63,908 nt of DNA, filler included, from Rozella allomycis CSF55 (GCA_000442015.1; 5 parts of 5 records of this genome joined end to end with filler, not necessarily neighbours in it); one strand, 5' to 3'. Shown: positions 32,775 through 37,740, counted from the first letter of the whole stretch. The notes: a model not told the origin generated them from the sequence alone. Made by a program: numbers and translations.

Positions 32775-35700
32775 ATGTCACTTTTTGAGCAAGAAGAAGA
32801 CGCATTTTCCGCGTTCCAAGTGAGTTCAACCGACTACGTGGCACCAGTTCCACTTAAGCGCGGCACTGACGAAGAGATCTATCCGTTTCCCAAGAGCGCG
32901 CGCCTGTCTAAAGCGACGCAGGTGATGGATGAGTTTTCGACGCGGGTAATTTACTGTATAATGCTTCAATATAGGTAAAATAATTTTTTCATAATTATCT
33001 AGGTAAAATAATGTGGGAGAGATGAGCAGGTTGAGCGGGAGGTGCAAGAGGGCGAGAAAAAGTCTCAGATCACGCATAGTGTGCGCCACGAGGTAGCGAT
33101 ACCTGAGGGGTTTGAGTATGTGCCTTTGAGTGAGCATGAGAGTCCGAGTGAGCCTTTTCGGAGGTATCCGTTTACGCTTGATCCGTTCCAGCAGTGTAGT
33201 GTGAGTTGTATTGAGAGGAACGAGAGTGTGTTGGTGAGTGCGCATACATCAGGTAAGGGAGATTGAGTTTTTTGAGGAGGTATTTAATGGGGATGGTGGT
33301 AATGATAGCTGGAAAGACAGTGATTGCCGAGTATGCGATTGCGATGGCGCTGAAGAAGAAGCAGCGGGTGATATATACGAGTCCGATCAAGGCTCTTAGT
33401 AACCAAAAGTACCGCGAGTTCCATCATGAGTTTGGCGATGTTGGGTTGATGACTGGAGAAGTTACGATTAACCCAACTGCGTCGTGTTTGGTGATGACGA
33501 CGGAGGTAAGAAAATAGAAAACAAGAGATAGATTTTGAGGAGTATGTTGTATAGGGGCAGTGAGGTGATGCGAGAAGTCGGATGGGTTGTGTTTGACGAG
33601 GTGCATTATATGAGAGACAAGGAGCGAGGAGTTGTTTGGGAGGAGACTCTTATCCTGTTGCCTGACCAGGTGCGGTATGTGTTCTTGTCGGCGACGATTC
33701 CGAATGCCAAGCAGTTTGCCGAGTGGATCTGTTGTGTGCACCACCAGCCGTGTCATGTGGTGTATACAGATTATAGGCCGACGCCGTTGCAGCATTATTT
33801 GTTTCCTGCTGGTGGCGATGGGATCCATTTGGCTGTAGATGAGAAGGGTGTGTTTCGGGAGGATAATTTTGTGAAAGCGTTGAGTGTGTTGGGCGATGAT
33901 ACGGTGTTGGGAGGCAAGAAGAAAAGGAAGCCTACAAAGAATGGTAAAGAGAGTGATTGAAGAGTATAGGGCCTTCTGATTTGTTTAAGATTGTGAAGAT
34001 GATAATGATGAAGAACTACCAGCCCGTTATAGTGTTTAGTTTTTCGAAAAAGGAGTGTGAGGCGAATGCGACGCAGATGTCAAAGTTGGATTTTAATGGT
34101 GAGGAGGAGAGGATGATGGTTGGCAAGATATTTAATAATGCGATGGAGGCGTTGAGTGAGGATGATAGACAGTTGGCTCAGATTGAGAATATATTACCGT
34201 TTCTGAAGAGGGGGATTGGTATCCATCATTCAGGTGAGAGAGTATGTAAAGAAAGAAAGGATTGTTACCGATATTGAAGGAGGTGATAGAGTTGTTGTTT
34301 CAGGAGGGGTTGTTGAAGGTTTTGTTTGCGACTGAGACGTTTTCGATTGGACTGAATATGCCAGCAAAGACTGTAGTGTTTACTAATTCGAGAAAGTTTG
34401 ATGGAAGGGATTTTAGATGGATTAGCAGTGGAGAGTATATCCAGATGAGTGGGAGAGCTGGAAGGAGAGGGTTGGATGATAGAGGGATTGTTATATTGAT
34501 GTTGGATGAGAAGATGGAGCCAACAGTAGCCAAGAACATGATAAAGGTAATAGCATGTAGTTGTAGTGAAGACTAGGTAAGCAAGTAGTTCTAGTGAAGA
34601 CTAGGTATTGAATTTAAATCAAATATAATAAAAGGGACAAGCTGATGCATTGAATAGTGCTTTCCATTTGAGTTANCAAGCTGATGCATTGAATAGTGCA
34701 TTCCATTTGAGTTATAATATGATATTGAATTTGATTAGAGTTGAAGTAATAGATGATTGAATGTTTGATGAAGGGGATGTCACCAGAAGATATTTTAGAG
34801 AAATCATTTTATCAATTCCAGAACAATGATTCATTGCCAAATTTGGAGAATCAGTTGAATGAGTTGATTGAAAGAAGAAAAGGATTGAAGATTGAACAAG
34901 AAGAAACAATTTCTGAATATTATGAAATAAAACAAGTAAAAGAGATTTAATATTGTAATGAAGCAATTGGAGGTGTTGAAGAAGGATTTTAAGATGATAA
35001 TTCATCATCCCACGAATATTTTACCATTTTTGCAAGTTGGCAGATTGGTTAAAATAAAGCATGAAAATGATGATTTTGGATGGGGATGTTTGGTTAATTT
35101 TATTAGAAAGAAAAAGATTGAAAAAGACAAGGGTAATCTATTACAAGTATGATGATAGAAACAAGTGAGATTTATATAATAGAAGTCTTGTTGAATTGTC
35201 AAAAGAATTCAGCTATTCCAAAGCCTTGTTTAAATGATAAAGGAGAGATGATTGTTGTTCCAGTTGTTTTGGAGAGTTTAGATGCTGTTTCTAAAGCGAG
35301 AGTTTATTTGCCAAAAGATTTAAAGAGTTATGAGAATAGGCAATCAATGTACAAGACAATTGAGCAAGTTAAAAAGAGACTAGGTAAGGAAGTGGGGGTT
35401 GTGTTTAACGTAGGTAAGAAGAAGTTAGTATAGTTAAACTAGGTAATCTATTTCTTCTCTAACATTATTATAGGTAATTCATTCTACTTTCACCTCGATG
35501 TAAGGGACTATTCCATTGTTGGATCCAGTAAAGGATATGAATATTCAAGATGAAAATTTAAAAAAATTAATAAAAAAGATGAACACGTTGGAAATTAAAT
35601 TGGAAGAAAACAAACTCTTCAATTCTCCAAATCTTTCTTCAATTTATAATTCATTTGAAGAAAAAGTTAATTTAGAAAATGAAATCAAATTAATCAAAAA

Positions 35701-36552
35701 TTTAATCAAACAAACAACGTGTATTCTTCACATGGATGAACTAAAATGCAGAAAGAGAGTTTTAAGAAGATTAGAATTCACAAGTCCATCTGATGTCATT
35801 GAAATCAAAGGTAACAGAAGTTTTGAAGGTTTCAACTTAGGTAACAGAGGTTTAAAGTTTCAACTTAGGTAACAGAGGTTGAAATAGTTAACCTCTAGGT
35901 ACCAATCATTTCAACTCATAAATTCTAGGTACAAATCATTTCAACTCTTAAATTCTAGGTACAAATCATTTCCTCTCATAAATTCTAGGTAGAGTAGCGT
36001 GCGAAATTAGCTCCGGTGATGAACTTTTATTAACTGAATTGATCTTCAACGGCGCCTTCAATGATCTCACTGTAGATCAAATAAACGCTCTCCTCTCTTG
36101 TTTTGTCTTTCAAGAAAAATCTGAAGACAATTCAAAACTAAAATCTGAATTAGCAAAACCTCTTAAACTATTACACGACACTGCCAGAAAAATAGCCCAA
36201 GTTTCAAAGGAATCAAAATTAAACATCAATGAAGAAGACTATGTTAATTCTTTCAGACCTGAATTAATGGATGTTGTTTACGCTTGGTCTCAAGTAGATG
36301 TTTCAATTTGAAATTATTTAGGGTGCAAAGTTTTCGCAGATTTGTAAAATGACTGATGTGTTTGAAGGATCTATCATTAGATGCGTTAGAAGATTGGAAG
36401 AATTGTTGAGACAAATGACTATGGCTGCTAAATCTATCGGTAACACTGAACTAGAAAATAAGTTTGCTCAAGGTATTCAATAATTGTTTCTTTCAATAGG
36501 TATCAACAAGATTAAACGTGACATTGTTTTCACCAACTCTCTCTATCTATAA
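32775..36552 (+). CDS. MTR4: Ski2-like nuclear exosome RNA helicase Mtr4; 13 introns, 5 of them composite
   Basis: [84 protein letters not shown] and C-terminal IKRDIVF..SLYL. Confidence 0.97.
32946..33029 (+). other. Composite intron of 3 GT-AG units (29+28+27 nt)
   Basis: 32946-32974, 32975-33002, 33003-33029; removing all three gives DEFSTR-VEREVQE. Confidence 0.85.
33253..33308 (+). other. Composite intron of 2 units (27+29 nt)
   Basis: 33253-33279, 33280-33308; removal restores Walker A SAHTSAGKT. Confidence 0.85.
34547..34634 (+). other. Composite intron of 3 units (30+28+30 nt)
   Basis: 34547-34576, 34577-34604, 34605-34634; restores [13 protein letters not shown]. Confidence 0.88.
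35384..35504 (+). other. Composite intron of 4 units (30+29+31+31 nt)
   Basis: 35384-35413, 35414-35442, 35443-35473, 35474-35504; restores [13 protein letters not shown]. Confidence 0.88.
35811..35988 (+). other. Composite intron of 6 units (30+28+30+30+30+30 nt)
   Basis: Units start at 35811, 35841, 35869, 35899, 35929 and 35959; restores [11 protein letters not shown]. Confidence 0.9.
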
Positions 36553-36686
36553 ATTAAGTAGTTTTAAGTATAATTAAAGAGTTTTAGCGTAATTCTGAGA
36601 ATAGTTTAAACTCTTTTTGAAATAGTTTACCCACTTCCCTTTAAAACCCACATTCTGTTGTACACAAAAATTAAAAAACTTTATTT

Positions 36687-37740
36687 CTAAATTAACGGAT
36701 CCCTATGTAACTCCTGCCATGCTTGATGCTTCTGTGTCACCGGCATATAGTTATAGCTATTCTCCATCATAGGCTGCCCCATATTCATTGAACTTCCTGG
36801 CACATTCTTGCTTCTCTTACACTTGTAATGTCCATCCTTTCTAAAATATATCTCATATCCAGGCTGTATCGCCCAAAACGCTCCCTTCTTTCACCCTACA
36901 CCCACTCCCTTACCTTGCCAGGCGTATCCTCGCTCTTCGGCACCCTAATAAACGCCTTGTTCAGCGACAAGTTATGGCGAATAGAATTCTATCTCTCAAC
37001 CCACACACACTCTTACCTGCCATCCAACAGGCGCATTCCTATAATACGGGTACTTGTTCATTATATATTCGTATATCCCACTCAACGTAACCTTCTTGTC
37101 TTCCTGCACATTAATCGCCTGCGCAATCAGCGACGCATACGAAAACGGCGGCTTTTTAAGCGACGACGTGTAATCCTCCAAAACGTTTTCCTGGTTATTG
37201 GAGCCCAGTATGCTCTGCGACAACTCGGGCCGTGCAGCGTACTCTTCCGACGGCTTGTACGGCTCCTCGCTGTGTTCGGAATTCGTCGGCAGCAGAAAGT
37301 AGAAACACTTGTCGCCAATCTGGATAAGCGATCTATCCCACAAAATCCAATCTCTTACTTTTCTGAAAGGGGAATGGGCGGCGAGTTGTTGTCGTGGAAG
37401 GCTTTCTGCACGTACACGCCATTCTTCCCATAGCAAACCAGCTCGAATCTATTAATTTGGTCACAATTTAATGTACCTAGATGAATGCATCGTATGCTGC
37501 TTACCTGGATGTCACGAAATTGAACTGGATGCGGGCATGGATGCGCGAGATGGTCTTGTGCGATCCGAGACACACATCCACCTCGGGCGAGCTCGGCCGG
37601 TTGTGGTCGGGCGAACGGCCAAGCGTGATTTCTAGTTTCTGCATGTAGTATACGAACGAGTCGCCCTGCAGCTTGGCGTAGGCCTGGATGGTGTTGCTCT
37701 GCGAATCAGTGTGCGGCGATTGGGGTGTTTGCAGAGACAT
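36687..37740 (-). CDS. FHA plus forkhead transcription factor (Fkh1/2 or Fhl1 type); 4 introns, one composite
   Basis: [28 protein letters not shown] (FHA); [36 protein letters not shown] (forkhead). Confidence 0.93.
37449..37504 (-). other. Composite intron of 2 units (28+28 nt)
   Basis: Minus strand GTAAGCAG...CATCTAG|GTACATT...TTAATAG; removal gives [14 protein letters not shown]. Confidence 0.85.

Follow-up and report, generated by a model that had tools for sequence, protein, structure and literature searches.

Six introns in a stretch of DNA from Rozella allomycis CSF55 (GCA_000442015.1) are composed of complete small introns arranged head to tail. The whole stretch, referred to below as the window, is 63,908 nt long, and its five parts are joined end to end with filler. 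Five of these stacks (S1-S5) interrupt a gene coding for an Mtr4/Dob1-type exosome RNA helicase, and the sixth (S6) is located in the adjacent, convergently transcribed gene for an FHA-forkhead transcription factor. The stacks are a real and unusual intron architecture of high interest for splicing and intron evolution. Judging from the DNA, they are probably intron minisatellites built of complete mini-introns, each of which is excised individually through zero-length exons. All intron and stack counts given here refer to this single eukaryotic 64-kb pseudo-scaffold, and the standard genetic code was used throughout.

Reading of the sequence and a chain scan agree that the six introns, 56-178 nt in length, are exact sums of two to six GTA...AG units, as was claimed in the original prediction made from the sequence alone. 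The units number 20, measure 27-31 nt, and each start with an intact GTA and end with an intact AG. All 14 internal junctions are AG|GTA, 13 of them being TAG|GTA and one GAG|GTA. The units abut with no bases between them and without overlap, so the predicted numbers of units and junctions, as well as the absence of exonic bases between units, were borne out by the unit listing.

S1 (32946-33029, + strand) contains three units of 29, 28 and 27 nt, is in phase 0 and was delimited by continuity of the open reading frame (ORF) only. Its last unit (33003-33029) can end in frame at either of two acceptors, GAG at 33026 (24 nt) or CAG at 33029 (27 nt); with their spacing of 3 nt, they offer a NAGNAG-type choice by which one glutamine is added or left out. 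S2 (33253-33308, + strand) consists of two units, 27 and 29 nt, joined by the GAG|GTA junction, and divides the Walker A region (SAHTS|AGKT). S3 (34547-34634, + strand) has three units of 30, 28 and 30 nt. S4 (35384-35504, + strand), which is in phase 1, is made of four dissimilar units of 30, 29, 31 and 31 nt. S5 (35811-35988, + strand), also in phase 1, contains six units (30, 28, 30, 30, 30 and 30 nt) forming two families, units 1-3 and units 4-6. S6 (37449-37504, - strand) lies within the FHA domain and includes two dissimilar 28-nt units with a TAG|GTA junction.

Four chains of at least three units were observed in the window, compared with 0.005 expected from 200 Markov-1 simulations, none of which gave more than one. 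In the same simulations, chains of just two units do not exceed the chance expectation (three observed, 1.79 expected); despite this, both two-unit stacks, S2 and S6, are required by the reading frame. None of the stacks holds an N, and an Rfam search of the 32700-37800 region gave no matches. S3 and S5 were also flagged as ordinary tandem repeats.

The Mtr4 gene (32775-36552, + strand) has 13 intron positions, five of which are occupied by stacks and eight by single introns. Removal of all of these together with a 39-nt assembly duplicate leaves an uninterrupted 998-aa ORF. Its product is 55-64% identical to six full-length Mtr4 proteins, which places it among the Mtr4/Dob1 DExH helicases; Mtr4 homologues bear PF00270, PF00271, PF13234 and PF08148 (helicase core, arch and DSHCT). 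The closest named protein, P0002 of Rozella allomycis CSF55, is 99% identical to the largest Mtr4 exon, and its public gene model takes out S2 (56 nt) and S3 (88 nt) as plain introns. When compared with the six homologues, the junctions formed by removal of S2, S3 and S5 are free of gaps, and the S4 junction has a 1-aa gap. S1 sits in the unconserved N-terminus of Mtr4. HTSAGKT is present in all 69 full-length Mtr4 homologues and GRVACEI in 17 of the 69.

The FHA-forkhead gene (36687-37740, - strand) yields a 305-aa ORF after removal of S6 and three single introns. FHA profile positions 1-28 are matched in exon 1, while Forkhead positions 1-48 and 49-73 are contiguous over a single intron; exon 2 alone, being too short, had no Pfam match. 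The predicted restoration of conserved Mtr4 and FHA sequence by stack removal is confirmed. On the evidence of the DNA and of homology, all stack units have to be removed for the conserved proteins to be produced.

The single-unit retentions checked in the original prediction gave a stop or a frameshift, and such damage is the rule, with two exceptions. Premature stops arise in 93 of the 95 unit-retention subsets of Mtr4. However, S4 unit 1 and S5 unit 1 (30 nt each), when retained alone, remain in frame and introduce no stop. Each of the eight single introns of Mtr4, if retained alone, leads to a premature stop.

Ordinary introns of the window were predicted ab initio by dynamic-programming ORF joining which allowed only 22-36-nt units or their chains; gene finders with no limit on intron length over-called long introns and were discarded. 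Since chains are penalised by the dynamic-programming model, it errs on Mtr4, and both Mtr4 and the forkhead gene were therefore curated by hand. Long conserved genes close with short introns alone, e.g., those for a 1,276-aa DHX29-like protein (eight introns) and a sorting nexin (five introns). The set of single introns numbers 92, eight of them curated in Mtr4 and 84 predicted in genes other than Mtr4 and the forkhead gene; 71 of the 92 are 26-29 nt long. The claim that the units have the same size as ordinary introns is nearly right: the latter are slightly shorter, with a mean of 27.7 nt over 86 introns of 24-34 nt, versus 29.15 nt for the stack units.

Among the 84 predicted single introns, 78 have GTA donors, and the acceptors are TAG (42), AAG (32), CAG (9) and GAG (1). 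The acceptor is the first AG located at least 24-25 nt from the donor in 82 cases. When applied to the stacks, this rule finds 19 of the 20 unit ends with the limit set at 25 nt and all 20 at 26 nt. Therefore, a spliceosome that treated the stacks like ordinary introns would stop at the AG of each unit.

Units were compared by identity of their interiors, for which the background mean is 0.52 and the 99th percentile is 0.71. Recent duplicates adjoin at five of the 14 junctions (S3 1|2 and S5 1|2, 2|3, 4|5 and 5|6), with interior identity of 71-92%, including 83% for S3 units 1 and 2. The remaining nine junctions join units at background similarity. All nine nevertheless keep AG|GTA, eight of them as TAG, and the units are 27-31 nt long. 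Tandem similarity of the variable number tandem repeat (VNTR) type is found in S3 units 1-2 and in S5 units 1-3 and 4-6, together with whole-unit differences between alleles, but this similarity does not extend to these nine junctions. Unused splice sites should have decayed along with the unit interiors, so the intact sites between diverged units argue that the internal sites are used. An introner-like spread of the units was considered as well and rejected, as the best interior identity between a unit and a single intron does not exceed 0.78, a chance level for about 1,700 comparisons.

Further evidence comes from contigs of three DNA runs (X1, X2 and X5) belonging to three studies, all of which cover the stacks. 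Between 31000 and 41000, X1 and X2 carry two haplotypes at about half depth each, distinguished by clustered substitutions and indels, and X5 carries the alternative haplotype only. The locus is therefore either heterozygous or the culture was mixed. The alleles differ by whole units. The other allele of S5 has five units: X5 omits exactly 30 nt at 35945, and an X2 contig passes from 35961 directly into the exon that follows S5. In the other allele of S4 there is an extra copy of unit 1, about 28 nt long (X1, X2 and X5 contigs reach 35418 and, after three added letters, start again from 35394). S3 unit 3 is represented by a different 30-nt version in X1 and X2. In X5, 85 letters were counted between 34579 and 34677 versus 58 true ones, which possibly corresponds to an extra S3 unit.

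By hand count, the small indels listed keep the lengths of the alternative units within 28-30 nt. Among the variants listed within stacks, none of the 14 substitutions and none of the six small indels falls on the three bases at either end of a unit (P ~0.01, hand estimate); beyond those listed, the whole 10-kb stretch has another 227 substitutions and 18 indels.

These arrays were most likely generated by duplication and deletion of a whole ~28-30-nt intron in register. The AG|GTA repeats bounding every unit are the probable sites of the slippage or unequal exchange involved. Duplicate units would be tolerated because every copy comes with a GTA donor and a (T)AG acceptor, spaced as the spliceosome of this organism expects. 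Donors in a stack most likely behave as in ordinary introns and pair with the first AG some 26-31 nt downstream, and we infer from such pairing that the units of a stack are removed one after another. The order of removal would not matter for the mRNA, since the other units stay intact and the AG|GTA context of the donor is re-created.

All six stacks are confined to two adjacent genes, which account for 17 of the approximately 101 intron positions in the window (P ~1e-5, hand calculation). Such clustering points to a local cause, either a slippage or recombination hotspot or gene-specific tolerance. With recent tandem duplicates at five junctions as well, the stacks look more like a local minisatellite growth of introns than like a general rule for long introns.

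Several points weigh against unit-wise removal. Fungal spliceosomes generally remove introns of 50-200 nt in one step. Within the window itself, a 42-nt intron without internal AGGT (43795-43836, + strand) is needed for the 680-aa ORF of an F-box/Sec10 (Rcy1-like) gene, and the exons neighbouring it are backed by Sec10 profile positions. Its required acceptor, TTAG, is at 42 nt, and the AAAG found 5 nt earlier, at 37 nt, breaks the frame. This intron is an exception to the first-AG rule and shows that longer excisions happen. The branch-site motifs yUnAy, UnAy and yUrAy were not enriched over shuffled interiors in either the 84 single introns or the 20 units, and the completeness of a unit is therefore judged by its GTA, length and AG only. 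The set of single introns used for comparison is an ab initio one and not transcript-based. Two splice-site features speak for unit-wise removal: internal acceptors of the stacks are TAG in 13 of 14 cases, compared to 42 of 84 in single introns (P = 0.003), and the upstream exon ends with AG at five of the six stacks versus nine of 84 single introns (Fisher P = 2.5e-4). However, members of one unit family are not independent of each other, and these and other tests of unit properties or splice-site frequencies therefore overstate significance. The uniform AG ends do mean that every stack donor has the AG|GTA context both before and after each removal. Finally, none of the sequencing runs listed as containing the locus is an RNA run, and the RNA run X11, which has the same species label, contributed only two spurious pieces of 18-33 nt that continue unlike the window.

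It is conceivable, though doubtful, that the spliceosome works as a molecular ruler which joins a GTA only to an AG located ~26-31 nt, rarely ~40 nt, downstream, so that longer introns genome-wide would be integer stacks. One unit would then be removed per catalytic cycle, slippage would add or drop units and intron length would evolve in quanta of about 29 nt. The strict form of this idea, put forward in the original prediction as a spliceosome that excises only ~26-32 nt at a time, is contradicted by the 42-nt intron of the Rcy1-like gene. That intron also counts in favour of another explanation, according to which the stacks are ordinary long introns removed in one step. The first GT of a stack would then pair with its final AG, and the AG|GTA sites in between would be unused by-products of VNTR-like repeats. 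One-step removal also agrees with the plain tandem-repeat register of S3 and S5 and their variation in copy number, with annotation of 56-nt and 88-nt stretches as simple introns in P0002, and with the ability of most fungi to splice introns of this size at once. We consider it unlikely nonetheless. Perfect splice sites with 27-31-nt spacing at the nine junctions that lack residual similarity should not have been kept if unused, and pairing with the last AG would require skipping of up to five good TAGs by a machinery that uses the first AG past 24-25 nt at nearly all single introns. Besides, no RNA fold of the six stacks brings the outer splice sites together. A hairpin model was rejected: the fold of S5 has z = -2.0 (4 of 200 shuffles are as good) with unpaired ends, and z of the other five stacks ranges from -0.64 to +0.62.

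A regulatory role, in which expression would be tuned by slow splicing in several steps through intermediates that carry stops, e.g., via Mtr4 feedback on its own pre-mRNA, seems quite improbable. It would suit the location of five of the six stacks in the gene of a nuclear RNA-surveillance helicase, the premature stops in nearly all partial products and the confinement of stacks to few intron positions. However, the number of units varies between alleles, suggesting near-neutral drift over a tuned count. One stack belongs to the unrelated forkhead gene, and a local mutational hotspot explains the clustering equally well. As for an artefact of the assembly (short repeats wrongly collapsed or expanded) or a dead gene (a decaying pseudogene), either is hardly credible. 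The assembly is indeed of low grade, with contig linkers and with unmerged overlaps at single Ns, one of which begins 3 nt past S3, but the stacks are reproduced in contigs of the three DNA runs and contain no Ns, and both genes give complete conserved ORFs after stack removal. Thus, minisatellites of mini-introns that are excised singly remain our preferred explanation.

The roughness of the assembly is apparent throughout the window. Single Ns (at 1510, 7472, 17943, 31890, 34676, 46842, 49625, 51155, 58728 and other positions) are located midway in exact two-copy repeats of 25-116 nt. These repeats are unmerged contig overlaps and have no biological meaning. The overlap next to S3 occupies 39 nt (34638-34676, no strand) within an Mtr4 exon and ends in a single N. 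It forms a two-copy repeat around this N, is skipped by X1 and X2 contigs, and the duplicated residues are missing from P0002. The N at 34676 is bypassed by DNA contigs, and the 25-nt copy at 31866 is omitted in X5. Four linker blocks (2673-2772, 7806-7905, 27239-27338 and 59021-59120) each consist of 44 N, TTAATTAATTAA and another 44 N. TTAATTAATTAA is a 12-base linker with stops in six frames that is used for joining contigs. As contigs are concatenated there, gene order across the four blocks is unreliable.

The GC content of the window is about 35%, and its gene content looks fungal, including three class-3 lipases, chitin deacetylase, trehalase, a DHX29-like helicase, a TCERG1-like FF/WW protein and mitochondrial uS2. 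The three class-3 lipase paralogues and the polysaccharide (chitin) deacetylase gene flank the Mtr4/forkhead pair (28532-30652 and 38125-40094) and have no predicted introns. The GC content of the forkhead gene is 0.45-0.56, richer than that of the window; its single introns are located at 37333-37358, 36989-37016 and 36888-36913 (- strand).

Single introns of Mtr4 (all on the + strand) occupy 33507-33532, 33944-33969 and 34235-34260 (26 nt each), 34746-34773 and 34936-34963 (28 nt each), 35133-35158 (26 nt), 36294-36321 (28 nt) and 36473-36499 (27 nt). Third codon positions of the Mtr4 coding sequence are mosaic: the first half has 46-48% G3 and 12-14% A3, and the last quarter has 38% A3 and 8% G3. 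Introns in the G-rich half are likewise G-rich and C-poor. Since the introns share this skew, a strand-asymmetric A-to-G mutational bias acting at the DNA level looks likely.

A metagenome scan with the exon following S5 as a query gave 72 loci, headed by L050, L047 and L001; the best match is about 63% identical over the protein. Intron positions were compared approximately, within 4 aa, for the 30 intron-bearing loci. Mtr4 introns 3, 4 and 9, all single, have counterparts in 10, 6 and 15 loci, respectively. Among the stacks, the position of S3 is shared by three loci and that of S5 by two, and the positions of S1, S2 and S4 are shared by none of the 30 loci within 4 aa. An environmental Mtr4 with 27% GC (L046, match at 4816-5246) has at least 14 introns of ~61-186 nt, and three of their approximate positions are common with the window Mtr4 (single introns 3, 9 and 13).

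If the units are spliced singly, no natural case of recursive splicing would be more compact than the stacks, and they would directly show that a spliceosome for tiny introns gauges distance instead of reading a branch-site motif. If they are removed in one step, the stacks are no more than unusual minisatellites within introns, and the splice sites inside them have to be explained in some other way. The stacks also show a simple route of intron multiplication by in-register duplication of a whole intron, after which the copies persist and diverge. The locus constitutes a natural test of whether long introns have to be taken out piecewise by a splicing machinery for tiny introns, since it offers arrays of two to six units, alleles with one unit more or less and a ladder of ~29 nt as a readout.

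Several known systems resemble the stacks in part. Stwintrons of filamentous fungi are two spliceosomal introns at one position that are spliced consecutively; the inner one lies within a splice signal of the outer one, so that only one order of splicing is possible. The stacks are similar in that several spliceosomal introns share one intron position, but they are not stwintrons because no unit interrupts the signals of another and any order of removal would work. According to the model attributed to Rogers, tandem duplication of exon sequence across AGGT reportedly creates an intron at a new position. Here, too, a tandem duplication bounded by AG|GT yields a splice-competent sequence; the difference is that the intron itself is duplicated in register and an intron is added at an existing position. 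Tandem genomic duplication is named among the mechanisms of intron gain (PMC13685798).

In the 64 kb of the window, the predicted introns have a narrow length peak at 26-29 nt, with the 42-nt intron outside it, and their retention usually results in premature stops; both features recall ultra-short-intron genomes (PMC5014332). Such genomes include those of Paramecium and Nyctotherus, with introns of about 25 nt, and those of microsporidia. Rozella introns of ~30 nt with premature stops have been noted in passing (PMC6349667). Among the papers open to our literature search, none describes head-to-tail arrays of ~29-nt introns, in these organisms or elsewhere.

The closest parallels are provided by recursive splicing at ratchet points, or zero-nucleotide exons, of long Drosophila and vertebrate introns (PMC5126111, PMC8605326). 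As in these animal introns, AG|GT is present inside the intron, at all 14 junctions in our case; removal of the upstream part would regenerate a donor, and the mRNA would bear no trace of it (PMC5126111, PMC8605326). Animal recursive introns are described as being from kilobases to hundreds of kilobases long, with few ratchet points and with stepwise removal demonstrated (PMC5126111, PMC8605326). In contrast, the stacks span 56-178 nt, i.e., their host introns are only 2-6 times longer than an ordinary 26-29-nt intron and far from the kilobase scale. They consist entirely of normal-sized units, up to six in number, vary in copy number, and their stepwise removal is suggested by the arrangement of splice sites.

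Zero-length exons with recursive removal were also reported for SPNCRNA.445 of Schizosaccharomyces pombe (Chen et al., bioRxiv 10.1101/226894). In both fungi a 3' splice site adjoins a 5' splice site inside an intron. The S. pombe report describes two instances genome-wide, in a 336-nt snoRNA-host intron, with conservation across species (10.1101/226894), whereas the stacks are arrays of minimal introns in coding genes, are polymorphic and have no Rfam matches. The arrangement would therefore appear to be a variant of zero-length-exon splicing, set apart from the animal and S. pombe cases by its scale, its normal-sized units, its length of up to six units and its polymorphism.

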